The notes below the pieces were generated by a model that did no database searches, was not told where the DNA came from, and was given only the letters and a program-made list of their open reading frames with translations. A program made the position numbers and the translations under genes. A stretch of 64,000 nucleotides of DNA, from the NCBI GenBank assembly GCA_049516875.1, contig JBEKSS010000005.1, forward strand, positions 1-64,000, in the 5' to 3' direction. Below, piece by piece: positions 5,775 to 64,000 of the stretch (the stretch's first letter is position 1; each line of letters begins with the position of its first letter). The stretch comes from Candidatus Bathyarchaeia archaeon (GTDB taxonomy: Archaea > Thermoproteota > Bathyarchaeia > Bathyarchaeales > Bathycorpusculaceae).

Positions 5775-5986
5775 GATAAATGGTGATACTTCCACTTCTG
5801 TCTCCTGAAGATTATGCATCTCCAAAGTCGCAAACGTAGTGCACGCCCAGGCTTTTCTAAGAAGATTGTCTTAATGATCTGTCCATCGAGTTTTGACATT
5901 AGGGGAATAATGCAAAACATAATGAGCCTGAAACGGTGCGTTTAACCAATGCCAAAACACTGAAGTCCGAGCTGTGAAATGTTACC

Positions 5987-6037
5987 AGTTCAAATTATTT
6001 GTACAGGAAGTTCAAACTATTTGTACGCATGTACAAA
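5987..6037. promoter_or_regulatory. Putative operator: 18-bp direct repeat plus palindrome upstream of wHTH regulator
   Basis: AGTTCAAATTATTTGTAC (5987-6004) and AGTTCAAACTATTTGTAC (6009-6026); TTTGTAC-N4-GTACAAA (6020-6037). Confidence 0.5.
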
Positions 6038-6099
6038 AGCGTAGAATTATACTCTTCACTGACTTCTCATTTTCTTCGTGCTGAGAGAGGAGGCATAAC

Positions 6100-6441
6100 A
6101 TGAGTGTTCGGCGCAGGAAACGCGAAAGGGATAGAATAGCCATAGTTGCGGAAATTCTGGAAATGGCACGCGATGGAGTGTTGAAGAGCAATGTAATGTG
6201 GAGAGCAGGACTGAGTTACCTTATGCTGAATGAATACCTCGAGCTCATGATGAATACCAAATTGCTGGATAAAGTGTTGCTGAACAACAAAGTCGTGTTC
6301 AAGACAACCGATAGGGGCATGAAATTCTTGTACCACTCCCATGAAATCATGGAGTTACTGGAAACTGAAGATGATAAACGCAAGCCTTACAGAAGGATTC
6401 AACTTCTTCCAAATAGTCTGCCTTCGCAGTCTCTCCATTAA
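6100..6441 (+). CDS. Winged-helix transcriptional regulator (ArnR1-like/HTH_45)
   Basis: RDRIAIVAEILE...KSNVMWRAGLSY...YL..M....LL...FKTTDRG.KFL pattern. Confidence 0.85.
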   Translation: MSVRRRKRERDRIAIVAEILEMARDGVLKSNVMWRAGLSYLMLNEYLELMMNTKLLDKVLLNNKVVFKTTDRGMKFLYHSHEIMELLETEDDKRKPYRRIQLLPNSLPSQSLH

Positions 6442-12246: not shown

Positions 12247-12499
12247 ACCACCCCCTTTTCGTTTCTTTGGATCCAAAAGCGACTCTTCACTTGAATGGAG
12301 GAAATAACATCAAGAACGCCATTATGGCCTCTACTGGTATTCACCTTTCTCCCTTCTTCTAAGTACAACTAGTTCTCACTGAGGATAAAGCTTGCGGAAA
12401 AATGTTCTCCTCACATTCAATACAACAGACTGTCTGGAAAATCAACCAACAAATAAACTCCTAATCTCTTAGCCTCGGATTCCTTCTAAAAAAGTGGAG

Positions 12500-12573
12500 G
12501 GCCGGGGCCGGGATTTGAACCCGGGCGCTAGGCTCCACAGGCCTATAGGCTACCAAGCTACCTCACCCCGGCC
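12500..12573 (-). tRNA. tRNA-His(GUG) with genomically encoded G-1
   Basis: Acceptor GCCGGGG/CCCCGGC, discriminator C, D-loop AGCTTGGTA, anticodon arm TAGGC-CTGTGGA-GCCTA, T-loop GTTCAAATC; no intron. Confidence 0.97.
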
Positions 12574-29918: not shown

Positions 29919-31184
29919 ATGGAGATAACAGATCAAAGGTTGGAAGACTGGCTTTCCCAAGTGTGTGAGAGCCCCAAGACAAGAGGAATGTACCTCTTCG
30001 TTTGGGGAAACTTCGAAAAGTTCTGCAGGAGAAGAGGAAAGGACCCTCTGACGCTTGTTGACGACTTCAGGGCTGTCAAGTACCAGGGTGAGCTGCAGAA
30101 GGAAAGGTTCCTTGAAGAGTGGCAGGATGTTCTCCGGGCCTTCAACACCTGGCTGAAGCCAAAGTTTGCTCCCTTAACCGTGAAAAACCACCTCACCGGC
30201 GTGAGGAGCTTCCTGAACTACTGGAAAATTCCTCTTGGCGTGGACCTTCCTAAGCATGCCTGTGTCATCTGGCACAACAGGGACATCAAAAAGGAAGAGG
30301 TAAAACAGATCCTGACTTTCGCAACCGCAAGAGACAGGGTGATCTGGCTGGTCATGGCCGAATCGGGAATGAGGTCTGATAATGCAGTGAACCTGAGATA
30401 CTCGCAGATCAAAGAAGACTTTGAAGCCAAAAGAGTTCCGATGAAGATTCTATTGCCGAGTAACACCTTGAAAGACCATGTTGGAGACCGCTTCACCTTC
30501 ATAGGCGAAGACGGCTTCAGAGAGCTGAGCGGCTATCTTCAGAGAAGGCTGCCACTCCAGGACAACAATTTCGTCTTCGTCACTGAGAAGCAGGGAAGAG
30601 TGAAGGGCGAACAATTCACTCCTGGAAGCCTTTCCATGAAGTTCAACAATATCGTGCAGAAACTCGGGATCGACAAGTCTGTCACAGGTAAATTAAACAA
30701 AGACAAAGGAGAACGTCCCAAGCCTAAACAGATAAGGCTGCATGGGCTGCGAAAGTATTTCAGGAACAACATGAAGGCTGATTCTGCTTTCATAAACTTC
30801 TGGATGGGCCACAGCCTAGGCGTTGACCAACACTACATCAGCCGGGATCCCGAAGGCCATCGGAAAGAGTATGCGAACGGATACCAGCACCTCAGGATTT
30901 TCGAGGCCTCAGAAGAAGTCTCAAAGCATTATGTGACGCTGGGCCAATTCGAGTCCATGCTGAAAATGAAGGATGCAGAAGTCGCCGCCTTAAGAGCCGA
31001 ACTCGAGCGGTACATGAAGGGAGCTGAAGGCTTCGAGAAGAGGCTTCAAGAGGTCAAAACAGAAATGCGCCGAGAGTTTGAGATGATGGTAGGCCCCAAA
31101 ACGTTGAACGAGTTGAAAGAACTGTTGGAAAGCAGAAAGAGACTGCTGAAAAAGCTGCCACCGAAATACGTCGCCAAAGAGTAA
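29919..31184 (+). CDS. Tyrosine recombinase/integrase
   Basis: SGMRSD (Arg), LHGLRKYF (HxxR), FWMGH and catalytic Tyr (VDQHY); C-terminal coiled coil. Confidence 0.95.
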   Translation: MEITDQRLEDWLSQVCESPKTRGMYLFVWGNFEKFCRRRGKDPLTLVDDFRAVKYQGELQKERFLEEWQDVLRAFNTWLKPKFAPLTVKNHLTGVRSFLNYWKIPLGVDLPKHACVIWHNRDIKKEEVKQILTFATARDRVIWLVMAESGMRSDNAVNLRYSQIKEDFEAKRVPMKILLPSNTLKDHVGDRFTFIGEDGFRELSGYLQRRLPLQDNNFVFVTEKQGRVKGEQFTPGSLSMKFNNIVQKLGIDKSVTGKLNKDKGERPKPKQIRLHGLRKYFRNNMKADSAFINFWMGHSLGVDQHYISRDPEGHRKEYANGYQHLRIFEASEEVSKHYVTLGQFESMLKMKDAEVAALRAELERYMKGAEGFEKRLQEVKTEMRREFEMMVGPKTLNELKELLESRKRLLKKLPPKYVAKE

Positions 31185-31195
31185 ACCTCAAAAAT

Positions 31196-31210
31196 CCCCT
31201 TTTTTCTGTT
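31196..31210 (+). terminator. Oligo-T terminator of integrase
   Basis: CCCCTTTTTTCTGTT 11 nt after the stop; same pyrimidine motif as the cassette repeats but without GGGGTG. Confidence 0.55.
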
Positions 31211-42790: not shown

Positions 42791-43273
42791 ATGAATGTTT
42801 TGCCAAGAAGAAATGCTCAAACAGCCGAAACCCAAGTCGTGACTGAACCTTCTAGACTAGATTTGCTTGAGGCTTTCGCAGAGTTGGTGGCTGAGAGATG
42901 GGGCTATTTTATGGGCAGACGCCTCACTCAACAAGAGATGACTGAGAAGTGCAAGAACGAAATCAAAGCTGCCAGAGAGAAATCCAAGGCTCTCAACGGG
43001 AGCATAGAGAAACTCATCAAGGGCGAGGATCCAGAAGTCCGAGCCATGATTGAGACTCAGCGTGCCGACCTGAAGAACGCCAAAGAAATCGCGGGCGAAG
43101 CTAGAAAGCCGTTCCAACAAAAGATTGCCCCTCTAGCTCAAGCTCAGAAATACTGTGACAACGTGGCCATTCCCGACTCTTTGAAAGAGTTGGGGCACCC
43201 TGTCACGCCACGGTTCAGCCTCAGCGAGTGGGTGGGCAAGGCTGTCGAGCAGAACAAGAGAAAGAAGAAGTAA
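42791..43273 (+). CDS. Helical hypothetical protein directly upstream of the large ncRNA
   Basis: 160-aa ORF, coiled-coil core, basic tail KRKKK. Confidence 0.75.
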   Translation: MNVLPRRNAQTAETQVVTEPSRLDLLEAFAELVAERWGYFMGRRLTQQEMTEKCKNEIKAAREKSKALNGSIEKLIKGEDPEVRAMIETQRADLKNAKEIAGEARKPFQQKIAPLAQAQKYCDNVAIPDSLKELGHPVTPRFSLSEWVGKAVEQNKRKKK

Positions 43274-43320
43274 GTCAGCTTCTTCCACATCAACCTCAAC
43301 CCCCTTTTTTTCCTGCTAAA

Positions 43321-43850
43321 ACTGTTCGGCTCGTCCGACAGTGGCATGGAAAGGCAGTCTTGCGAGAGCTAGACGCACGAGAGGACAGAATAAAGGCTTG
43401 AGAAGACAAAGATAGAAGCGTTTGTGCGTTAAACCTCAAAGGACTGTGGAGAAGGAAGACCGCTGGCTGTAAGGGAACAGCCGAAACCCCAATGAAGTCT
43501 TTTTCACAGCTAACCGCTCAGGACCTCTTCGTCCATTATCCAGAAGGTTTAATGGACATGGAGAGGGCACTCTCCGAGCCGATCGGCGGTGTAAGCTGAA
43601 GGAGAGTTGGTAGCTCGTATAACACAAAGAAGAAGCCCCATTACTTCTAAGCCTGATCCATGTGGGAGACACCCCCAATCATACTACCCACGTGCTACTC
43701 ACATTGAACAAGCTACCTTCGGGTACGCATGTTTCAAGTCGAGTTGGGCGGAAGCGAGCAGCGTAGAAGGGCGACTTTCTACGCGAGGAAATGGAAGGCG
43801 CAGCAATGCGCTGGGCGAGGCAGCACAGACGCTTACCAACGCTGGGGTGT
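43321..43850 (+). ncRNA. Large structured non-coding RNA B (unassigned)
   Basis: At least 10 helices, three GNRA loops, one cUUCGg loop, 12-bp closing helix 43416-27/43823-34; no credible ORF. Confidence 0.75.
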
Positions 43851-43857
43851 TAGTGTC

Positions 43858-44082
43858 ATGAGCATTTTCTGCGAGAATGAAGGAAAGTTGGTCACTATCG
43901 TTATCCCAAACAGAATAGCCATCGGCAGCCAAGTGAAAGTCATCAAGTGCCACAAGAAACTGCGCGATCGTGATTGTAGGGGCTGCCTTGCCAAGCATGC
44001 GTGTGCTGTATTCTTAGACGAGCCGAGGTTTTCACTCAAAACTTTCTGTGGAGGTCGAAGACGTCGAAAACGGAAACCATAG
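43858..44082 (+). CDS. Cys-rich small cassette protein
   Basis: ATG after GGGGTG; CRGCLAKHAC; PRFSLKTF. Confidence 0.6.
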   Translation: MSIFCENEGKLVTIVIPNRIAIGSQVKVIKCHKKLRDRDCRGCLAKHACAVFLDEPRFSLKTFCGGRRRRKRKP

Positions 44083-44113
44083 TCCTCTTCCTTTTTCTGT
44101 TCGGGGTGCATGT

Positions 44114-44374
44114 ATGGCCAGAGTTTTGCCAGCAAATGCTATAGAGGTGTCACACAACAAGGAAGCATTCTGCTTAATCTTCAGGTTCCAAGCTGCTGAC
44201 GCACATCAAGAAGCCGTCTACATCTCCATATCGCCTGCAGGAGCAAAAACCACGTCTGCCCTAATCGGCAGGGAAATCCAAGAGTACGAAAGAGAAACAG
44301 GTCTGACAGTAGCACCTTGGGAAATGCCTCAGAGCACACTGACCCAGATGAGTAAAAACCACCTCTCAAGCTGA
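44114..44374 (+). CDS. DUF3467-like small protein
   Basis: ANAIEVSH.KEAF.L.F...ISPAGAK...L...I..YE..G pattern; ATG 5 nt after the repeat RBS. Confidence 0.65.
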   Translation: MARVLPANAIEVSHNKEAFCLIFRFQAADAHQEAVYISISPAGAKTTSALIGREIQEYERETGLTVAPWEMPQSTLTQMSKNHLSS

Positions 44375-44436
44375 TCGCTGAAACGTTTAAATACCTTCTT
44401 CCTTTTTTTGTACGAGGTACGAAGTGGGGTGGAACG

Positions 44437-44643
44437 ATGCCCAAAAAGAAAAGCAAGAGTAAAGAAACCGCACGGCTCAACCTGTACCTCGACCCGGACC
44501 TGGCGAAAAAGCTGAACGACTACTGCCTCGCATACATGGAAAAACACAAGAAAATAATTGAGTCCATAAGACAGATGGTTGGCAGGATGGCGCTGGCAGA
44601 ATGGCTTCAAAACCACGGCGACGACTTCACCGTCGAGCTCTAG
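44437..44643 (+). CDS. Ribbon-helix-helix-like DNA-binding protein
   Basis: RLNLYLDPDLAKKLNDYC...MALAEWL. Confidence 0.65.
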   Translation: MPKKKSKSKETARLNLYLDPDLAKKLNDYCLAYMEKHKKIIESIRQMVGRMALAEWLQNHGDDFTVEL

Positions 44644-44674
44644 CCTCCACTTTTTTCTCTTCGGGGTGATTCAA

Positions 44675-44806
44675 ATGGTAAGAAAAGATCCGGAGCATTG
44701 TAGCCACATACGGATAAACAGGGTCCTTGACACCTGGCTCTGCAACGAGTGCGGAGCTGAATTTGTTCCGAAGAATCCTAAGCACACGACAAAGTGGCAA
44801 AATTAA
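44675..44806 (+). CDS. 43-aa zinc-ribbon microprotein
   Basis: CSH...WLCNECGAEF; bounded by two repeat copies. Confidence 0.65.
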   Translation: MVRKDPEHCSHIRINRVLDTWLCNECGAEFVPKNPKHTTKWQN

Positions 44807-44827
44807 CCCCCTTTTTCTGCGGTGCAA

Positions 44828-44960
44828 ACACCTACTTCATCGACAGTCGAAAGGCTGCAACAGGCGGCGTGGCTCTAATCTCGCTGCGACAAGGGCACTT
44901 TTTGCGCGGAAAAGGTAGGGGGTTCTGTGCAGAAAACCCTAGTCGTGACCATTGGGGTGT
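44828..44960 (+). ncRNA. Structured non-coding segment C (multibranch, GAAA tetraloop)
   Basis: CAGTC-GAAA-GGCTG, GCGGCG/CGCTGC, TAGGG..TTCTG/CAGAA..CCCTA, ACACCT/GGGTGT closing helix. Confidence 0.5.
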
Positions 44961-44969
44961 GTATGAGCA

Positions 44970-45635
44970 ATGAGCAAGATACCGTTGCTTCTGCAGCGCA
45001 TTCAAAGATTTGAGGAGAGTCCCAGGGCTCCGCCGAAGACAAGCAAGAAACTGCTAGCCCTTCTCAATCGATTGAACACTCGCGAGTGGCTGCCCATCGT
45101 TGAAGGACAGCTGATGGAAGCCATTGTTCACTTGAAATGTGAAGTGAAGTTCATTGAACACCTGCCCCGCTGCCGGTTCTGTCAGCTGGAGCTCCAGCTA
45201 GATGTCGAGCGTTACAACGGAGTCCATTCAACCTGGTATCTCAGCCTGGAAAACAGTGAATATCTCGAAGAGGAATACCCTGACTGTCCCAAAGAGGAAG
45301 ATTACACGATAGATGATTATTGGAGTCAAGTGGAACGTTACAGGCAGACCGGCACAACAGAATCGAAAGACGTCAACACCCTGAAATTCATCTTGGACAG
45401 GGCAAAATGGGCTTACCAGATAGCTGGAAAACAGATAAAACTGGCCCGGCAGCTGCTCAGACTCGTTCGAAACTGGAACTTCAGCGAGAAGACCGAGGTA
45501 GAATTCAACAGGCTCTTCGAAGAACTTGAAATGTACGAGATAGCTAATCCTTCCCTTTTTTCTGCCTTGGGGTGTAAACACGAGCGACAAACTTCAGAAA
45601 CTGATACACACCATCAACACAAAACGGTATGCTAG
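44970..45635 (+). CDS. Hypothetical cassette protein
   Basis: 221 aa, CRFC; 3' end reads through a repeat copy. Confidence 0.65.
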   Translation: MSKIPLLLQRIQRFEESPRAPPKTSKKLLALLNRLNTREWLPIVEGQLMEAIVHLKCEVKFIEHLPRCRFCQLELQLDVERYNGVHSTWYLSLENSEYLEEEYPDCPKEEDYTIDDYWSQVERYRQTGTTESKDVNTLKFILDRAKWAYQIAGKQIKLARQLLRLVRNWNFSEKTEVEFNRLFEELEMYEIANPSLFSALGCKHERQTSETDTHHQHKTVC

Positions 45636-45681
45636 AGGAAACCCGAAGGATATACTATATCGGATTCTCGATGAAATCGAC

Positions 45682-46566
45682 ATGAGAGCCCACTTCGGTT
45701 ATAGAAGAAGCTGGGAGATACTCGTCGAACTGTTGGCCTATCACCTTGGCTTGCTGTCAAACCCCTGGCTCTACTCGAAACCAGCGATGGACTTACGGTA
45801 CGTTGAAGAGAAGACGAATCCGATGATAAGGCTCGGATTCCGCAGAAACCAGGGTCTGTGGGCTCCTAGAATGAGACTGCAGTGGAGACATCCAGCCTCC
45901 CAGCTTTCACGAGAAGCGAGAGAGGTTCTAGCCCGCGTTGAAGAGACGGACCTTCTGGAACAGTACGTCGTGGCAGCCAGGGCTAAGCCGTGGGACCATG
46001 TAGGCGACATATTCGTTGAACAGGAACTGGCAGGACGGAAGAACGCTCTTGGACAGAACCTGACACCCAAGCAGATCGTTGACTTCATGTTGAAAATGAC
46101 CCTGGATTTTGATAAGCCCACAAAGGAGCCAAGAACGTTGCTTGAACCATGTGTCGGAACAGGGCGATTTCTGATAGAAGCAAGTCTGATGAACCCTGAA
46201 AAACCTCTAATCCTATTCGGAATCGAGATAGACATCACACTGTACCGGGCATGCCTAGTCAACATGGCTCTCTTCAGCAGCAACCATCCCTACAGCATCA
46301 TCCGGGCTGACACGTTGATGCTTGATCTCGAGGCTTCAATGCCTGGCAGCCCGGTCTGGAACCAGGGTAACAGGTGGGATCCAGCGGACATGTCACCATA
46401 CTACATCAAGATACCTCTACCATTCAAGTTCTCCCTAGCGGAAATGGCAAAGGTTATGAAAGAGCAGTCAACCGACGTGCAGCAGCCCACCATCGTAATA
46501 CCGACGCCGCCGATGGCGTTCTCACTTGCAACACTGGCCAGAGCGAAGAAGAAACAACAGACATAA
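45682..46566 (+). CDS. N-6 DNA methylase-like (HsdM-like) protein lacking the NPPY/F motif
   Basis: LGQNLTP (motif X), LLEPCVGTGRFL (motif I), FGIEID, ADTL; frame open upstream to an ACG at 45580 behind the repeat RBS. Confidence 0.8.
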   Translation: MRAHFGYRRSWEILVELLAYHLGLLSNPWLYSKPAMDLRYVEEKTNPMIRLGFRRNQGLWAPRMRLQWRHPASQLSREAREVLARVEETDLLEQYVVAARAKPWDHVGDIFVEQELAGRKNALGQNLTPKQIVDFMLKMTLDFDKPTKEPRTLLEPCVGTGRFLIEASLMNPEKPLILFGIEIDITLYRACLVNMALFSSNHPYSIIRADTLMLDLEASMPGSPVWNQGNRWDPADMSPYYIKIPLPFKFSLAEMAKVMKEQSTDVQQPTIVIPTPPMAFSLATLARAKKKQQT

Positions 46567-46598
46567 TCCCTCTTTTTTTTCTGTCCGGGGTGCAAAAG

Positions 46599-46997
46599 TT
46601 GAATCCTTTGGAATTGTATCAGCTTAGGCGTTACTGCCGCAAATACGGATTGGATTTTCAGGAGGTCGACAGCACGTTAACATACGCAGAATGCAAAAAG
46701 CATCTTAAGTCCCTGGTGCACATGCTCTTCCAATCACTGGACACGTTTGAACTGGCTCGCATGGCATCGCTGCAGGTAGAGTACATAGAAAACCACGCTC
46801 TCACCTACTATGCATCATGTCGGGTGGGTGGAGAGACAAAATCGGAAGAAGTCGGGGATCCCGACACGAGTCCACAGCGGTTTTCGCTGAAGACCATGAC
46901 AAGTGTTGGATTCTCTCTTTCATCATACGCAAAGCGACAGCCTGCATTTCCGGACCCTAGCATGAACAAGACAAGGCAAACTCAACGAAAAACCTAG
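46599..46997 (+). CDS. Hypothetical cassette protein
   Basis: TTG 6 nt after the repeat RBS; two FSL motifs at the C-terminus. Confidence 0.65.
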   Translation: MNPLELYQLRRYCRKYGLDFQEVDSTLTYAECKKHLKSLVHMLFQSLDTFELARMASLQVEYIENHALTYYASCRVGGETKSEEVGDPDTSPQRFSLKTMTSVGFSLSSYAKRQPAFPDPSMNKTRQTQRKT

Positions 46998-47094
46998 GCT
47001 AAACCGCCCAGAAATAGTCTTCTTCCTCATACTATATTACAGAAATCTCAAACATTCGGTGAGAGCCCTCTTTTTTTCTCCCCGGGGTGCAAGA

Positions 47095-47364
47095 GTGAGA
47101 CTCCGACGAAGCGACGTGCAAATCGTGAGAGCGATTCTCGAGGCAGCCAAGAAACTGGTGCGGGAGCCCTACTCGCTGAGCGAGCTGGCCGCAGCGGCAA
47201 GCGTGACGAGGAAAACCGCGAGAAGATGGCTCAGCCTGCTCAGGACAGTGGCGGAACTGTTGGTTCTGCCCCTGGAAACCAGGGTTGCTTATTTTGAGGG
47301 TCCAGGAAGAGGCAGAAAGCGAAGACGGAAAAGACTGACCACCGTTTCTCTCGCGCTCAGGTAG
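47095..47364 (+). CDS. HTH DNA-binding protein
   Basis: YSLSELAAAASVTRKTARRWL; GTG after the repeat RBS. Confidence 0.7.
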   Translation: MRLRRSDVQIVRAILEAAKKLVREPYSLSELAAAASVTRKTARRWLSLLRTVAELLVLPLETRVAYFEGPGRGRKRRRKRLTTVSLALR

Positions 47365-47497
47365 GCTGCCATCCCCTTTTTTTCTATGTTCAACTGGGTT
47401 CACTTGGGGTCCAAGGTTTTTGTATTTTCTCCGCACGCTCGTTACGGTTGCCCTATGGGGTGAAAAAACCCTTAAACCTTAAAGGAGAAAGAGAAAA

Positions 47498-48046
47498 ATG
47501 AAAAGACTCAGTAGGCTTAGTACACGCGGCAAAACTCTGATCGTCATCTTGTGCGCTGCTACGCTGGTTGGGGTTGCCGTCGCTATCCCCATCCTCGAGC
47601 GAGTGCTAACAGTGACAGTTCAAACCGGGCCCAGGCTCTTCGAAATCTGGAACGCGGACAGGACAGCGCAGATAACGAGTGTGGATATTGGCGGAATCTT
47701 CCCGGACCAGGTCAACGCCGTAAACTTGACCACGATCTACTTGCACAACACCGACACTTCGGGACAGCGCGACCTGAACATCACGGTGCATCCGTCGGCA
47801 ACGTTCGACTCGACCATCTTCAACCTGCTCGTAAACGGCACAAACCTGGCGGATGGCGTCACAAGAGTGCTTTGGAACAACGGGCCGGGCACATGGGTCC
47901 TGGCCTGGGGCCACGACCAGACGTATCCGATAGAGTGGGTCAAGGTGGAAATCTACCTGTGGCTCAAGCCCGAAGCAAGCCCGCCAGCCGGCGCCTACGA
48001 CTTTCAGCTGCTCTGGGACGCGCCGCTAGGCTCTTGGGGACCGTAG
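47498..48046 (+). CDS. Secreted/membrane-anchored beta-rich protein
   Basis: Basic N-terminus + hydrophobic helix, N-x-T sequons; own BRE/TATA (AAAAAACCCTTAAA). Confidence 0.7.
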   Translation: MKRLSRLSTRGKTLIVILCAATLVGVAVAIPILERVLTVTVQTGPRLFEIWNADRTAQITSVDIGGIFPDQVNAVNLTTIYLHNTDTSGQRDLNITVHPSATFDSTIFNLLVNGTNLADGVTRVLWNNGPGTWVLAWGHDQTYPIEWVKVEIYLWLKPEASPPAGAYDFQLLWDAPLGSWGP

Positions 48047-48096
48047 TGAACGCTAAAGCGAACACTTCATAACCCTCTTTTTTCTGTTCGGGGTGA

Positions 48097-48396
48097 ATGA
48101 AAGCGTCTGAATCTCTTAAAACAAAAGTCAAATCCTACAACCCGTACACGAGAGCACGGAACAATCAACAGATTTACAAGACGTGTCCAGACTGTGGAAG
48201 AGAGCTTATGATGTATCGTGAATCGGGACATCAGCACTGGAGACCTACCGGCAGAGCATGTCCAGAACTTGTTGAATGGAACTATGTTGTGTACATACGA
48301 TGTGGAATCTGCGGTGGATTAGTTAAAACACGGTTGAAACCTATGTCGAAGTCTATGCCAAAGGACCTAGCGCGGCAATGGAAATTAATACCCTGA
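48097..48396 (+). CDS. Zinc-finger protein
   Basis: CPDCG and CGICG; follows a repeat. Confidence 0.7.
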   Translation: MKASESLKTKVKSYNPYTRARNNQQIYKTCPDCGRELMMYRESGHQHWRPTGRACPELVEWNYVVYIRCGICGGLVKTRLKPMSKSMPKDLARQWKLIP

Positions 48397-48435
48397 GTCT
48401 CCACTCCTCCCTTTTTCTGTTCTGGGGTGATTGAA

Positions 48436-48582
48436 TTGAGTTATTTGCGAAGAATCTTAGGAGTAGTCCTGAATGGCGCCGCGGAAGTCAGTCAGATCGC
48501 CAGCGACGCCGCCAAGGAAACAGCAGAAGTAGTCAAGGACGTCGCCAAGACCGTTACCGAGAAGAAACCAGCAACGGCATGA
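48436..48582 (+). CDS. 48-aa amphipathic microprotein
   Basis: MSYLRRILGVVLNGAAEVSQIASDAAKETAEVVKDVAKTVTEKKPATA between two repeats; below the ORF-track cutoff. Confidence 0.6.
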   Translation: MSYLRRILGVVLNGAAEVSQIASDAAKETAEVVKDVAKTVTEKKPATA

Positions 48583-48673
48583 AGCCTTTATTTACGAGGG
48601 GCTTCTGCCTCTTTTTTTTCTGTTCGGGGTGAAGGCCCGTTTAAGGTTGGAATGAAGGGCAAGCAGTGGTTAT

Positions 48674-52018: not shown

Positions 52019-53497
52019 CTATGGTGTGTATTTGAAAGGATGTTTTGATCGGTCCTTGTTTTCCATAAGCTCGTCCATGCCAGGTCTGCCTTCCATGGCC
52101 TTGCGCACGGCGTGACGTACAGCCTTGTAGTTGTTTATGTACACACGTTGTCGGTCAACGGCTGCGGGATGGACGAAAACGTTTGCTATGATTATGAGTT
52201 CTTCAACAGCTTCCTTCGGAATCGTGCCATCTGCGACGCTGTCTATGACAGCTTTGGCCACCGCCGTTTGGGCTGGCCCATAAACCATGCTTGCCTCCCG
52301 CATGCCCCTGATCGTGACTGTTGGAACGATTAGGGTTACCGGCTTGACCGCCAAGTTCGGCTCCAGAATGGCCAGTAACGGCTCATGCCCCGGAGTTGGT
52401 GTTGCCTTGGCCTTTGTGAAGGCTTCCGCCACTGGGCCGTCTTTCGTTCCGATAAGGAGGTCAACGTGAGCCACCTCTGCATCCTGCCCAGCTAGTGCTT
52501 CCCCAACGCGCAGTTTGAAGTTCTTGACTGTTTCTGGAGTAATGTCCACGGTCACGAAACGCTCTTCCAGAGGTTTCTCAGTTAGCTCAAAGCTTATTGG
52601 TTTTGGTTGTACTTTCCCTATTTTTTCCAGGTCGAGCCTCAGTTCCTCTTTTGACTCGTAGGTTAATTCTCCACCGACGCTTAATGGTTTCCTCACTGGG
52701 CCGACCTTGATTTTCATCATCTTCAGCGCCTCTTTTGTGCCTACGGCGCCGCTTCCCGCTATTATTCTAGCTATTTTCTGGACTTTGTATTGAAGTTCGC
52801 GGGCCTGTTGCAGCTCACCCTTCTTCACATGGTTATAGATTTGAATCCAAATGTCGGGTATGACGTTGGCACTAGCAAGGATTGCCCCTGAGCATCCGGC
52901 TGAGAGTCCTGCCACGACAACCTCGTCGTGCCCGCAAAGAACGTTTATCTTGTCCCTGACTTTTTCCAGAACGGCCAAGATGAAGCTTAGCTGTCCGCTG
53001 CTGTCCTTCAATGCGACGATGTTTGGGATTTGCGCTAGATCTTCCACCATCTGCCAGGGAAGAGGCAAGCCTGTGCACTGCGGAATGTTGTAGAGAATTA
53101 TGGGCAGGTCGACTTCATTCGCAATCGTGTAGTAGTGCTCGTATATTCCCCGATCTGCTGGTTTTAGGTAGAACGGTGTGACGATGAGGGCAGCGGTGGC
53201 GCCAACGTCCTTTGCGTACTTCGTCATTTCCACCGCTTGGTCTGTGCCGCTTGCTCCTGTCCCAGCAATCACTGGAACCCGGCCGTTCACTTCGTCAACC
53301 ACGATCTTGATTACGCCCTTTTTCTCCTCGTTCGTGAGGTTTACAAACTCGCCGGTCGTACCGCACGGGACGACTCCGTGAACGCCCAGTTCGATGCAAT
53401 GGTTAACTAAACTCCGCAGCCTTTCTTCGTCAATTGTTTTCCCGTCGTCGGTAAAGGGCGTCACCAGCGCGGGCATAATGCCTTCCGGCTTGTACAT
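52019..53497 (-). CDS. DapA-family class I aldolase fused to formaldehyde-activating enzyme (Fae) domain
   Basis: GTTGEF, LYNIP, ALKDSSG (Schiff-base Lys); C-terminal VGEAL...AHVDLLIG...GH.PLLA.LEPNL..KP.T...GPAQ.AVAKAV...NNY.A. Confidence 0.9.
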   Translation of the reverse strand: MYKPEGIMPALVTPFTDDGKTIDEERLRSLVNHCIELGVHGVVPCGTTGEFVNLTNEEKKGVIKIVVDEVNGRVPVIAGTGASGTDQAVEMTKYAKDVGATAALIVTPFYLKPADRGIYEHYYTIANEVDLPIILYNIPQCTGLPLPWQMVEDLAQIPNIVALKDSSGQLSFILAVLEKVRDKINVLCGHDEVVVAGLSAGCSGAILASANVIPDIWIQIYNHVKKGELQQARELQYKVQKIARIIAGSGAVGTKEALKMMKIKVGPVRKPLSVGGELTYESKEELRLDLEKIGKVQPKPISFELTEKPLEERFVTVDITPETVKNFKLRVGEALAGQDAEVAHVDLLIGTKDGPVAEAFTKAKATPTPGHEPLLAILEPNLAVKPVTLIVPTVTIRGMREASMVYGPAQTAVAKAVIDSVADGTIPKEAVEELIIIANVFVHPAAVDRQRVYINNYKAVRHAVRKAMEGRPGMDELMENKDRSKHPFKYTP

Positions 53498-55101: not shown

Positions 55102-55923
55102 TCACCAACTTTCTTTGGGTCGACGCATGACCATGAAGACTGTCGTGGCCACGAAGAAGACGGTTGTCACGGCAAGGATGACTGCCACCCGTCTGGTGTT
55201 GTCCAGATCATCATTCATACTGCCTTGCAGCGCGGTGTAATTGCCCCACAGAGTAGTGTAATTCTGCTGAAGCTGCACGAAAGTCTGGTTAAGCTGCAGG
55301 TACTCACCTGCAAGGCTGGTGTAGTTATCGTTTAACTTGGCGTAATCATCGTTTAGCTTCGTGTAATCATCGTTTAGCTTCGTGTAGTTATCATTCACCG
55401 TCTTGAGTTGATTTTCAAGGTCTTTGAGGAGCGTGTTCTCAACATGAGTCATGTAGAAACCGCTGACAGCATCTGGGAACCTTAGCTCTAAGCCTCCCAG
55501 ACTGGCGGAATATGTCAGTTTGATCTGTCCAAAGGTCACACCCCACACGCCGCCTGGAATAAAGAACGTTCCGTTGTACTCCCTGTCCGCACCACTCAAG
55601 GAGAAGTTGTAGTCAGTCACGCTTCCGATTGAAACCTCGTCCGTTCCGTTCAGGAAACCATAAACCTCGAATCTCAACAGTTCCACGTAGACGCTCGTTT
55701 GCGGCGCGAGACGTAGCCACACCGTTAGATATTCAGCAGGCAGAGCTTCCGCGGTTGCATTGACCTGGATCTTTATTCCGGGCATTTCTGAGTCGAAAAA
55801 AGTCTTGACGTTCTCCCCTCCAACCTGCCCCCTTACCTTACACATCATTGCCAATGTCAAGATGCATACGATAAGAATGAAACTTGGCTTTACTAGTCTA
55901 CTCACCTTTTGCCCTCCGAACAT
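55102..55923 (-). CDS. Surface protein with heptad-repeat coiled-coil stalk and C-terminal TM anchor
   Basis: Signal peptide; NDNYTKL-NDDYTKL-NDDYAKL-NDNYTSL (21-bp repeats at about 55319-55395); TM + RRPK. Confidence 0.75.
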   Translation of the reverse strand: MFGGQKVSRLVKPSFILIVCILTLAMMCKVRGQVGGENVKTFFDSEMPGIKIQVNATAEALPAEYLTVWLRLAPQTSVYVELLRFEVYGFLNGTDEVSIGSVTDYNFSLSGADREYNGTFFIPGGVWGVTFGQIKLTYSASLGGLELRFPDAVSGFYMTHVENTLLKDLENQLKTVNDNYTKLNDDYTKLNDDYAKLNDNYTSLAGEYLQLNQTFVQLQQNYTTLWGNYTALQGSMNDDLDNTRRVAVILAVTTVFFVATTVFMVMRRPKESW

Positions 55924-61646: not shown

Positions 61647-63545
61647 CTAAGGATAATGCCCGTACTTCGTCTGAATGTTGGTTATCACTGAGTCTTCGGC
61701 TTGTTGGAAAGCTACCTGAGCAGTTTGGGTTCCTTGAACTACCGCGTTCCAAGCGTTTGTCGCTCCCGTCCAGACATCACCCATTTGCGCATTATTAGGT
61801 ATCGGGATGGTGTATTTGAGCTGGTTGCCGAAGCCTGAGATGACAGGGTCGTTCTGGATGGTTGTGTCTTTGTAGGCGTCATAGGTCACGGGTATATAGC
61901 CTAGCGTCTTGCCTAGAGCTATTTGATTGGTTGCGCCTGTAAACCATTTCATGAATGCGATGTCAGCATCTTTGTTGGCATCTTTCACGTTTGAGGTCAT
62001 CCAGATGCCTTTGACTCCTTCAAACGGCATCGGAGTTGCGTTGTTGTTCTGAGATATCATGGGAATCAATGACAAGCCGAAGCTGATGCCTGCATTCTTC
62101 ACGTTCGCAACCTCCCAGTCCCCATCGACAAGCATTGCTGACTTGTTCTGCTCGAAAAGCGCGTCTTGGCTGGCTCCGCCCAAGTCTGGAGCAAGGTAAG
62201 GCAGTATGGTGCTGTTGAACCACGATGCAGCCTGAATGGTGCCTGATGAGTTCAAGCCAACAAGACCCGTGGTGTCGTTGTAGTAGTATCCTCCCCAACC
62301 TGAAACCCACGGGAACAGGTGGTAGGGATCGTTTAGAGTGACGTAACTTAAGCCGTATTGGTAGGGAGCCGTTCCTCCTTTGGCAGACTCGTTGTGCATT
62401 AAAGCGACCATTTGATCGGTGGTAGTGGGAGGAGTGGTAATGTACGCCTTGTTGTAGAAGAGCGTCAAGCATTCGGCGGACAAGGGAAGCGCCCAAAGGT
62501 GTCCCTTGTATGTCATGGCAGACAGGGCGCTCGGATAATACGCTGCCAAGGTGGCGTTGTCAATGTAGGTGTCTATCGGGAGAATCAGGCTGGCGTTGAC
62601 AAACTCGCCCTGCCAATCTTCCGCGCCCCAAGTATACAGGTCGGGGCCTTGGCCTGCAGGTATCGCAGCCGTCAAAGCGTCGTGCATGCCAGCGCTTGTC
62701 TTTTGAACCATATTGACTGTGACTCCTGGGTATGCCGCCTCGAATAAGCTGATCTGTGTGTTCCAAGCAGTAAGCTCGTTGGGTAAGAGCGCGTGCCAAA
62801 TGGTCACAGTGCCTGTGATTATCCTCACCGTCAAAGTGTTGTTTGAAAACGCGTAGACTCCTGTTGTGCTGTTGAATACTTGCACGTTCCAAATGTACGT
62901 TCCTGCGCTTGTGAACGTGCAGTTAAAAGAGTTCAGTGCATTGTTCTGAACGGTCGTGTTCGACGCCACAGATTGCCATGTTCCAGTCACGTTCACCCAT
63001 AGGCTTGCATTCGCAATATTGTCTCCTACGCTCACCGGGGTGTAGGTGAACGTTACCGTGGTTGGGAGGGTTCCCACCGACTGATTTGCACCGTCAACAG
63101 GAGTGTTAAGAGCGACAGATACACCTGCACTTGCCACGATCAGGGTATAATTTGATGATGCTGAGACTCCGATCGTGCTGTTGAATACTTGTACGTTCCA
63201 TTTATACGTTCCTGAGGCCGTGAATGTGTAGCTAAAAGAGTTGACTGTGTTGTTCTGTACGTTTGTGGTATTCGACTCTACGGACAGCCCGTTCATCAAT
63301 AAGCTCGCGTTAAAGATATTGTCCCCTATGCAGACTGGGGTGTAGGTAAACGTTGCGGCGCGTGTGTATTGTGTTGCGCCGTTACTTGGACTGTTAAGAG
63401 AAACAGACAGAGTTGTCGCTGCTGCACCGGGCATATAATAGACGTAGGCCGCTGCGACGACAGCAATGATTATAATGATTACAATGATTGCTGCAACCAA
63501 CATTCTCGATATTGCTCGCTTTGATTGTCTTACTTTCACTAACAT
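61647..63545 (-). CDS. malE: Maltodextrin-binding protein with two N-terminal Ig-like repeats
   Basis: AGQGPDL, LFYNK, F...KSAMLVDGDW, PIPNNAQMGDVW; KRAIS + hydrophobic helix; start set at ATG 63545. Confidence 0.85.
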   Translation of the reverse strand: MLVKVRQSKRAISRMLVAAIIVIIIIIAVVAAAYVYYMPGAAATTLSVSLNSPSNGATQYTRAATFTYTPVCIGDNIFNASLLMNGLSVESNTTNVQNNTVNSFSYTFTASGTYKWNVQVFNSTIGVSASSNYTLIVASAGVSVALNTPVDGANQSVGTLPTTVTFTYTPVSVGDNIANASLWVNVTGTWQSVASNTTVQNNALNSFNCTFTSAGTYIWNVQVFNSTTGVYAFSNNTLTVRIITGTVTIWHALLPNELTAWNTQISLFEAAYPGVTVNMVQKTSAGMHDALTAAIPAGQGPDLYTWGAEDWQGEFVNASLILPIDTYIDNATLAAYYPSALSAMTYKGHLWALPLSAECLTLFYNKAYITTPPTTTDQMVALMHNESAKGGTAPYQYGLSYVTLNDPYHLFPWVSGWGGYYYNDTTGLVGLNSSGTIQAASWFNSTILPYLAPDLGGASQDALFEQNKSAMLVDGDWEVANVKNAGISFGLSLIPMISQNNNATPMPFEGVKGIWMTSNVKDANKDADIAFMKWFTGATNQIALGKTLGYIPVTYDAYKDTTIQNDPVISGFGNQLKYTIPIPNNAQMGDVWTGATNAWNAVVQGTQTAQVAFQQAEDSVITNIQTKYGHYP

Positions 63546-64000
63546 ACTCTCCGCTAGGCCCTTTAGGAGCATTCCAGATATAACTATTTCGAAGCCTCCA
63601 TTTTTGCACGCGCGAAAATGCCATAGCAAAAAGATCAATTTCTCATGGGTTTTGAACCTCTTCTCATGTTATGCGCAACGAAAATGTTTCTTCGGAGACT
63701 TCCAGCTGTGTAGGCAACAGCATCCAAACATAAAATATTTTAGCTAATTATCTGTAATTGTCTGCTATGCGCTTTCGTTTCAGCCAGAGAAGTTGAAATG
63801 GCATGTTGAGCAAGATTCTGGTTCTTCTGATAGGTCTATCCTTGGTTTCGAGTTCCACACTCCCCATCATTCAAGAAACCTCAACGGCCAATTCATTCAG
63901 AAGACTCGTTTCAAGCGTCAATGTGGCGCAGCGACAGCCGCAATTCAACTCTCTGGCTAGCGACATCGCGTTCGAGACGCCTGACTGGGTGAAAAACGCG

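Follow-up and report, generated by a model that had tools for sequence, protein, structure and literature searches.

The stretch of DNA analysed here, called the window, comprises 64,000 nucleotides (nt) of contig 5 of the 2.43-Mb, 20-contig genome of a Candidatus Bathyarchaeia archaeon (assembly GCA_049516875.1). Positions 43296-43857 of its + strand encode a structured RNA of around 560 nt, which is real and widely conserved and lies between the gene of a 160-amino-acid (aa) protein, named here p160, and an array of short genes separated by a repeat. The core of this RNA is very probably a circularly permuted relative of the catalytic domain of RNase P RNA, and the RNA may act in cis as leader of the array operon; we assign to this composite reading a probability of around 0.5. 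An initial annotation of the same DNA had proposed a large RNA at this place that may pair in two parts with the array repeat. The existence of the RNA is borne out by a covarying fold in 55 homologous RNAs, and the pairing is discussed below.

The RNA family and its fold

DNA similarity searches with the RNA gave only short matches at chance level in 60 genomes of relatives and none in a phage collection, and the related loci were gathered by means of the p160 protein after these searches had failed. The p160 gene (42791-43273, + strand) encodes an all-helical protein of no known family that is always found directly upstream of the RNA. Of 331 other genomes of the same family, five hold a homologue of p160, and these five also turn up in a collection of species representatives; p160 further matches 126 metagenome stretches, the best 80 of which were used. 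In every related locus the homologue adjoins the RNA: with an nhmmer profile built on the intergenic stretch, RNA homology was detected directly downstream of the p160 gene in 83 of 85 sequences, the two misses being sequences that end at a contig edge. The full-length matches amounted to 58, and the set of 55 RNAs was obtained by removing L023 (identical to the window) as well as L024 and L045 (near-identical to L012 and L013). RNAs of the family are 550-960 nt long.

In the core alignment of these 55 sequences the named structure contains 86 pairs in 16 helices, three of which are pseudoknotted. Paired cells represent 95.0%, compared with 76.3% in shuffles and 42-46% when the partners are slid by one to three columns, and none of 500 shuffles reaches any of five measures. 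Both-sided changes are found in 67 of the 86 pairs; kinship among the 55 sequences inflates such counts with respect to independent events, although the slid-partner controls retain that relatedness and still collapse. From 51 of the 55 sequences, with L014 and three long-insert sequences set aside, a covariance model of 43565-43700 was made; among 151 genomes of the family it gives one match in each of four, and these four hold p160 as well. The RNA family is confined to one kind of integrated element in Bathyarchaeia. Two elements from different genera (L012, oriented positions 5860-6300, and L013, 6830-7235) have near-identical 3' halves of the RNA and p160 proteins that are only about 60% identical, which suggests recent recombination within the RNA.

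The RNase P-like core

In archaeal RNase P RNA (RNaseP_arch in Rfam, RF00373) the 5' strands of P1 and P2 are followed by the P3 hairpin, the sequence GAGGAAA, the 5' strand of P4 and P5; then come the 3' strand of P5 (P5'), a CAAG/AAAG joiner, P15, P2', an A-rich joiner ending in ACAGAA, the 3' strand of P4 ending in UU, an unpaired A and P1'. According to sections of PMC4919922, the conserved regions (CR) CR-I, CR-IV and CR-V lie in the catalytic domain. The core of the window's RNA begins with CCUC (43434-37), AAAGG, a 12-bp stem domain, GCUCG (43613-17) and a 17-nt A-rich joiner (family consensus ...AAACAGAA); it continues with GCCCCAUU (43635-42), A, CUUCU (43644-48), two capping hairpins, GGAAG (43750-54), CGAGC (43755-59) and A, and it ends with a 10-bp hairpin (43761-84), GAGGAAA (43785-91), AAUG...GGGC and GAGG (43817-20). 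When the conserved joiners are read against the host RNase P RNA aligned to RF00373, this order becomes P5', AAAGG, a P15-like domain, P2', an ACAGAA-type joiner, P4', P1', a two-hairpin cap, P1, P2, P3, GAGGAAA, P4 and P5. The P1-like helix is capped by the two hairpins, and the ends of the transcript exit at the place of the specificity domain through a long-range closing helix (helix 1, 43416-25 with 43825-34; 10 pairs, 93% paired, five double-changed).

The named pairings of this core are each supported by the alignment. The P5-like 3' strand CCUC and the AAAGG joiner (43434-43442) are followed by the stem domain (43444-43509), which includes a hairpin and a first C-run (43486-89); CCUC pairs with 43817-20 (98.6% paired, 4/4 double-changed), the joiner is at least 90% conserved, where host RNase P reads GUGG-AAAG at that junction, and double changes are found in 10/12 pairs of helix 3 and 5/6 of helix 5 of the domain. 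What corresponds to CR-I lies within 43750-43820 (helices 2, 9-13 and 16). After the P1-like (43750-54) and P2-like (43755-59) 5' strands, this stretch contains the P3-like hairpin 43761-84, with all ten pairs double-changed, GAGGAAA, with three invariant bases and two more at least 90% conserved, the P4-like 5' strand (43790-93 plus 43813-16, split by an inserted hairpin at 43794-812) and the P5-like 5' strand GAGG, pairing with 43434-37. What corresponds to CR-V is found at 43613-43648 (helices 9-13), where the P2-like 3' strand (43613-17), the A-rich joiner, the P4-like 3' strand (43635-42) ending in UU, the A and the P1-like 3' strand (43644-48) follow each other (family consensus ...AACACnAAACAGAAGCCUCAUUACUUCU). 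The P4 pseudoknot is formed as well: helices 10-12 are 89-99% paired with double changes, and position 4 of P4 is U-A, C-G, A-U or G-C among the relatives, which are all four Watson-Crick types.

A signature scan for GAGGAAA and ACA[AG]AA within 450 nt, with the subsequent 9-mers complementary from AA onward, found a single place in the 2.43-Mb genome, the host RNase P gene. The same scan of 495 kb of related loci found 19 places, all inside these RNAs and all in inverted order, with the CR-V-like part 117-172 nt ahead of the CR-I-like part (the host gene gives +239 nt). The scan does not pick up the window's own RNA, whose P4-like 5' strand is split by hairpin 43794-812 and whose joiner is GAAGAA.

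A second core subtype is present in nine loci (L068, L072, L052, L081, L069, L074, L058, L046 and L094), which have the same 5' leader and a different core (970-1310 in L068 and 3140-3480 in L072). Its order is likewise ACAGAA first. Four of the nine have canonical P4 strands with a bulged U, in the forms AAC(U)CCGCC/GGCGGGUU and AAU(U)CUGCC/GGCAGAUU. The P4 strands of L072 and L068 are identical to host RNase P RNA at 16/16 and 18/21 positions, bulged U included, and those of L081 and L069 differ from them by two compensatory changes from C-G to U-A with the bulge kept. As judged from these sequences, the second subtype clinches the kinship of the RNA family with RNase P; it may represent an ancestral state, or it may stem from host RNase P sequence that was captured recently. 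Its similarities to host specificity-domain stretches are weak and local (E 0.13-1.2). A third local similarity to host RNase P (E 0.13) was considered and attributed to chance, as it does not fit the cyclic order.

Points against the reading

Besides the kinship of the aligned sequences, several observations weigh against the proposed reading. No Rfam model matches the window at the gathering score, and none gives a meaningful match to the window, L013 or L077 at E ≤ 10; ten further loci of the second subtype gave no Rfam match at E ≤ 1. The host's own RNase P gene scores 196.6 bits, whereas these RNAs stay below the threshold of the RF00373 covariance model. The permuted order would explain the missing match, but the likeness to RNase P consequently rests on our own mapping. 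The linear arrangement of RNase P RNA, in which CR-I lies 5' of CR-V and the termini form P1, is not found. P4 is the region with the highest conservation in RNase P RNA and its bulged U is universally conserved and binds metal, as stated in parts of PMC4919922, whereas the window subtype pairs AAUNGGGC with GCCUN'AUU and has no bulge. In the window, moreover, the P4-like helix is interrupted by the inserted hairpin, and the CR-V-like joiner, ACAGAA in the family consensus, reads GAAGAA. Due to the missing bulge, the split P4 and this joiner, catalysis may be altered or lost in the window's RNA. No specificity-domain motifs (CR-II, CR-III) were recognised in the window.

As regards transcription, one sediment RNA library contains contigs of relatives that cover 43365-43836, a weak hint that the RNA is transcribed; these contigs are short, and neither transcript ends nor an expression level can be read from them. 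That this library lacks contigs of the flanks carries no weight, as the divergence there exceeds the likeness cut-off.

Other parts of the RNA

The 5' edge of the RNA (43296-43317) consists of a C-run, a T-tract and CCUGCU, that is, a copy of the 5' half of the array repeat. Its 3' part pairs with 43343-52: the pairs 43309-17/43343-52 are present in 47-55 of 53-55 sequences, with double changes at 43316/43344 (CG in 30, UA in 17), 43317/43343 and 43313/43348 and with CG/UA/UG alternation. The T-tract at this edge belongs to the fold. The initial annotation had considered a pairing in cis with the adjacent T-tract, and such a pairing is real, but it involves 43343-52 and not the segment then proposed. 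The pairing partner belongs to the motif GGCAUGGAAAGGC (43343-43355, 90-99% conserved), which follows a 5' hairpin (43321-43342) whose pairs 43321-24/43339-42 are found in 55/55 sequences with several pair types. The stretch 43383-43396 (GGACAGAAUAAAGG), called segment 1 below, is conserved and unpaired in the alifold consensus. The motifs at 43343-55 (G[G/A]CAUGGAAAGG) and 43384-96 (GACAGAAUAAAGG) look like paralogous purine motifs, and since the former pairs in cis with a repeat-like unit, pairing of segment 1 with another U-tract stays conceivable.

Further downstream, the hairpin at 43569-43607 has a conserved loop of 22 nt and a stem (helix 7) with 6/6 pairs double-changed; positions 43585-89 of its loop form a pseudoknot with 43460-64 (helix 4), with a change from CG to UA in 13 sequences. 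The hairpin at 43659-43694 (helix 14) exposes in its loop the segment 2 of the initial annotation, as had been claimed: all five pairs of the stem 43659-63/43690-94 are double-changed and 90% of the cells are paired. The loop contains CACCCCC at 43670-76, of which CCCCC is invariant. A variable hairpin follows at 43697-43744 (helix 15, 4/4 pairs double-changed). Some RNAs carry, right after both C-runs, inserted hairpins of the form AAAG, stem, GGGG and then AAU; they occur in 4/55 and 6/55 RNAs at alignment columns 121-242 and 514-600, which correspond to window positions 43489/43490 and 43678, and at the first site a larger insert is present in another four RNAs. This insert resembles a small mobile or duplicated module targeting CCCC^AAU.

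The array repeat and its link with the RNA

At 43844-43860 the initial GGGGTG of the array is followed by the ATG of its first short gene (43858-44082), and the array of short genes extends over 44078-48633 of the + strand, with repeat copies at about 44090, 44650, 45557, 46574, 47071, 48077, 48410 and 48613. Each repeat consists of a stop codon, a C-rich run, T5-8, CTxTTy, GGGGTG, 3-8 nt and a start codon (ATG, GTG or TTG). The 17-mer TTTTTCTGTTCGGGGTG has seven matches with at most two mismatches in the 2.43-Mb genome, all of them on the + strand between 44092 and 48615; at up to three mismatches the matches are 21, with 14 outside the array. The repeat is real and element-specific. Over 333 instances in the family it is reduced to a C-run, a T-run and GGGGTG.

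In all the loci, the array starts exactly at the 3' end of the RNA and on the same strand. In the 55 loci, the density of GGGGTG is 0.07 per kb upstream of the RNA and 2.34 per kb downstream, and every one of the 42 loci with at least 1.5 kb downstream has at least four copies, so that the RNA was never found without the array. The RNA is flanked by the two halves of a repeat unit: its C-run, T-tract and CUG stand at the 5' side of the RNA, its (U-run) GGGGUG at the 3' side. This places the RNA within the punctuation of the array operon and at the operon's head. The sequence CACCCC has a density of 1.62 per kb in the RNA against 0.14 and 0.04 per kb in the flanks.

The 3' end of the host 16S rRNA (...GGATCACCTCCT, also given as ...CACCUCCU) would allow GGGGUG to be used as a ribosome-binding site through one G-U wobble. 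Among 2853 open reading frames (ORFs) of at least 100 aa, GGGGTG is found within 15 nt before the start in only six, one of them in the element, whereas AGGTGA (53) and GGAGGA (40) are commoner host forms at this place. The T-tract was also considered as a TATA-like promoter of leaderless genes and rejected on spacing, its centre being about 16-22 nt from the ATG. A local hairpin between the C-run and GGGG of the repeat can be drawn in 256/351 instances (137/351 in shuffles) and is no stabler than in shuffles (-5.64 against -5.59 kcal/mol).

Regarding the pairing claimed in the initial annotation, segments 1 and 2 have the letters it reported (GGACAGAATAAAGG at 43383-96 and AGACACCCCCAATC at 43667-80), and both are near-invariant and among the best-conserved stretches of the 55 RNAs. 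Segment 1 was said to pair at 13 of 14 positions with the 5' half of the repeat; three copies reach this value and others are lower, since the ungapped pairing is 11-13/14 for seven of the 12 stretches before a + strand GGGGTG at 43844-48626, and the 14-mer consensus as then written has no exact occurrence in the window. The best duplex between the 5' half of the repeat and the RNA (-14.7 kcal/mol) is indeed located at segment 1, but this energy is also attained by 58 of 1000 dinucleotide shuffles and, among equally long natural windows, by 19 of 472 (4/236 on the + strand). Of 1000 shuffles, 65 contain CACCCC and four show both features, which is nominally unusual, but the pair was chosen after inspection. 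The pseudoknot 43394-405/43644-54, which had been proposed to bring the segments together, is not conserved: only three of its pairs can be aligned in the family, none of them ever covaries, and the structure conflicts with the covarying helix that 43644-48 form with 43750-54.

Co-variation between segment 1 and the repeat, proposed as a check and with its absence named as a refutation, is also missing. ACAG is present in 44 of the 48 loci with at least three repeats, and their 288 repeats contain CTGT in 77 cases, CTAT in 55, CT[CT]T in 141 and none of these in 15; ten of the loci that keep ACAG have no CTGT repeat. Furthermore, of 305 repeat 5' halves only 26 find their best partner in segment 1, and other purine-rich stretches pair equally well or better. 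The 13/14 match is best read, on this comparison, as a feature of this element and some relatives and not as a maintained guide-target pairing. For segment 2 and GGGGUG, both invariant across the family, covariation is uninformative.

Proposed role and alternative explanations

In the reading that we favour, the RNA is a co-transcribed leader of the array operon, part of a transcript running from p160 to the array and acting on this transcript in cis. We infer transcription as a single unit because the paired T-tract lies upstream of any room for a promoter. The RNase P-like core makes an RNA-cutting role conceivable, its catalysis and its substrate being presumed. Such a core might cut the RNA free of the p160 message or otherwise set the maturation and loading of the downstream message, and host RNase P proteins or p160 could assist or be recruited by the RNA. 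Docking of a C-run on GGGGUG is a plausible extra contact. Processing of the array transcript in cis is, for the moment, a tentative proposal. A more elaborate version, in which a permuted ribozyme derived from RNase P has its own substrate-recognition segments and cuts the polycistronic transcript at each repeat, or first at its own flanks, seems unlikely; there, substrate recognition would pass from the specificity domain to the purine tract, aligned with the U-tract, and to the C-run loops, docked on GGGGUG.

Several other explanations compete with the leader role. In the one advanced by the initial annotation, the RNA is a bipartite guide in trans, with segment 1 on the U-tract and CUGUUC and the loop of segment 2 on GGGGUG of every repeat, and it would mask terminators, gate ribosomes or cut and join transcripts at each repeat. 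This is quite improbable. The near-invariance of both segments, the complementarity of seven of the 12 copies, the joint features in four of 1000 shuffles and the strict polarity with which RNA and array always occur together speak for such a guide; cis pairing with a repeat-like U-tract unit is demonstrable for the similar purine motif 43343-52, and the single variable base of segment 1 is the mismatched one. However, the scarcity of CTGT among the repeats of ACAG loci, the better pairing sites elsewhere, the non-conserved pseudoknot and the frequency with which shuffles reach the match of segment 1 alone all speak against it. It is less doubtful, but still somewhat doubtful, that the C-runs alone are involved, with the CACCCCC loop, perhaps also the C-run at 43486, pairing with GGGGUG, either at the first ribosome-binding site in cis or at all of them in trans; by analogy, they might work as an anti-Shine-Dalgarno mimic or as a substrate dock, like loop L15 of RNase P on the 3' end of tRNA. 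GGGGTG is element-specific and GGGGUG pairs perfectly with CACCCC, while it pairs with the host 16S 3' end only through the wobble; CACCCC is enriched in the RNA, three variant loops (CGCCCC in L014, UACCCC in L048 and L061) keep wobble pairing, and the second subtype retains CACCCC after the P1' strand. Nevertheless, the invariance of both partners leaves no covariation, and the C-runs are not always kept exposed, because 6/55 RNAs have the inserted hairpin with its terminal GGGG, which can pair in cis with the C-run (a similar insert stands at the other C-run in four) and the C-run of the second subtype can, in our reading, pair locally. The G-runs 43473-76 and 43589-92 inside the RNA are alternative partners.

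It is rather unlikely that RNA and repeat are functionally unrelated, the repeat being ordinary punctuation (a strong ribosome-binding site together with a spacer rich in U or a weak terminator) for the internal genes of a long operon and the RNA a decoy of host RNase P proteins or a processor of another substrate, so that the complementarity would be compositional, purine against pyrimidine. The repeat does lie between stop and start codons with GGGGTG 3-8 nt before the start, scattered purine tracts are the best partners of its 5' halves, about 6% of shuffles attain each single match, and an inactive virus-borne RNase P-like RNA has a precedent in camelpox virus, as described in parts of PMC3001073; but an array that begins exactly at the RNA 3' end in all loci and an RNA flanked by repeat halves are hard to explain in this way. 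Finally, ORFs of 80-117 aa overlap the stretch, and it might be thought that there is no RNA gene but short ORFs (43436-43678 on the minus strand, 43607-43861 on the plus strand) or a site acting at the DNA level. This is hardly credible, given that the substitutions compensate pairs instead of following codons (double changes in 67/86 pairs), that loops tolerate insertions and deletions of any length and that the ORFs have no listed counterpart at the same place in four relatives checked.

Comparison with known systems

With archaeal RNase P RNA (RF00373), the RNA shares P1-P2-P3 followed by GAGGAAA, the P4 pseudoknot, P5, AAAG after P5' and ACAGAA before P4'; in both, the most conserved bases sit in joiners, and the sister subtype has the canonical P4 with its bulged U. 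It differs in its permuted order, the capped P1, the lack of mapped specificity-domain motifs and, in the window subtype, of the bulged U. In addition, it is embedded in the mRNA of a mobile element and has no covariance-model match, and the host keeps a normal RNase P RNA. Among the known systems, archaeal RNase P RNAs are the closest, above all those reduced to the catalytic domain, which are described, in part of PMC3579882, as the 'type T' of Thermoproteaceae.

The arrangement suggested by a self-recognising ribozyme has a laboratory counterpart. Engineered circularly permuted RNase P RNAs tethered to a substrate, as well as M1 RNA joined to a guide (M1GS), can be active and can cleave themselves or target mRNAs; those are constructs, while cleavage and guide pairing are here proposals only. 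RNase MRP and the camelpox RNA are derivatives of RNase P RNA that, respectively, have other substrates or are carried by a virus without tRNA-processing activity; both are eukaryotic systems, and neither is described as permuted in the portions of the sources consulted. Outside eukaryotes, where RNase MRP is found, we know of no natural RNase P RNA derivative for which another job has been established. Neither a natural permutation of RNase P RNA nor an archaeal mobile element with an RNase P-like RNA came up in the main texts of the literature searched, and the words non-coding, noncoding, ncRNA and intergenic do not occur in the main text of the paper on Bathyarchaeia viruses.

Circular permutation of genes for structured RNAs has precedents in archaea, among them a permuted signal recognition particle (SRP) RNA. 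Naturally permuted archaeal tRNA genes are described in part of PMC3978253, and a permuted 23S rRNA in part of a preprint. Those RNAs are repaired by cutting at a bulge-helix-bulge motif and circularisation. Intron-like excision of this kind was considered here because the flanks of the RNA are two halves of a repeat; no such helix between them was seen by eye, without a systematic search.

IS110 bridge RNAs and the exon-binding site (EBS) loops of group II introns, to which the RNA had been likened, also have two separate single-stranded elements able in principle to read a bipartite target. The likeness goes no further, as no IS110-type recombinase, reverse transcriptase or intron domain V was found. 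Unlike bridge RNAs or seekRNAs, the RNA has neighbours without IS110/IS1111 domains, the only recombinase being a tyrosine integrase 12 kb away, and shows no co-variation with the repeat; unlike group II introns, it has no Rfam intron match at E ≤ 10 and no reverse transcriptase among the proteins scanned. The position at the head of an operon rich in T-tracts would suit a processive antitermination RNA of the put or EAR type, short leaders that bind RNA polymerase and make it pass the terminators downstream; there is no Rfam match, and we take this RNA not to be similar in size and fold to the known examples.

The integrated element and its genome

The genes of the window include that of an archaeal LonB. 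The gene block from a tyrosine integrase (29919-31184) to about 50500 has almost no family matches, the exceptions being a P-loop ATPase, DUF6011, a ParB-like nuclease and an N6 DNA methylase, and we read it as a probable integrated mobile element. The integrase marks its likely left end, and a near-copy of the 5' half of the repeat (CCTTTTTTCTGTTT) lies at 31198, just past the integrase stop codon; the sole tRNA gene of the window (His, 12499-12572, minus strand) does not adjoin the integrase. The methylase (45682-46566) is located among the short genes of the array. The array is partly syntenic with those of L012 and L013, and the genes between the repeats differ, which fits cassette-like turnover at conserved spacers. 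Three separate modules of p160, RNA and array (L071, L075 and L080) are found on a single 2.2-Mb metagenome contig, so one genome can hold several such elements.

The p160 protein has no Pfam or PHROG match. Its structure model (predicted local distance difference test, pLDDT, 85) is helical throughout, none of the counted matches in PDB has E ≤ 0.001 and the best are generic coiled coils; the searches assigned p160 to no family, and neither a solved relative by sequence nor an informative fold emerged. Viral contigs scanned with the single proteins p160 and first array protein gave nothing.

Outside the element, four tandem 21-nt units are located at 55317-55400, inside a minus-strand ORF (55102-55923) without family match, and direct repeats of about 300 nt (75-77% identical) at 62826-63407, within the gene of a solute-binding protein (61647-63638), indicate an internal domain duplication. 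The ORF 52019-53497 encodes a dihydrodipicolinate-synthase-family (DHDPS) domain fused to a formaldehyde-activating enzyme (Fae) domain.

Significance

This large structured RNA has no entry in Rfam and comes from a class of archaea that is abundant but uncultured. Universal ribozymes are few, and RNase P RNA is among them; the present family, which forms an evolutionary series from a subtype with the canonical P4 to one without the bulged U, tests how far the catalytic domain of RNase P RNA can be rewired. For the element, the RNA may represent a new way in which an archaeal mobile element matures or controls a long operon with a U-tract in every intergenic spacer. If it were a self-recognising ribozyme, it would be a natural counterpart of M1GS and of the self-cleaving RNase P conjugates, as well as a prokaryotic parallel to the divergence of RNase MRP from RNase P.

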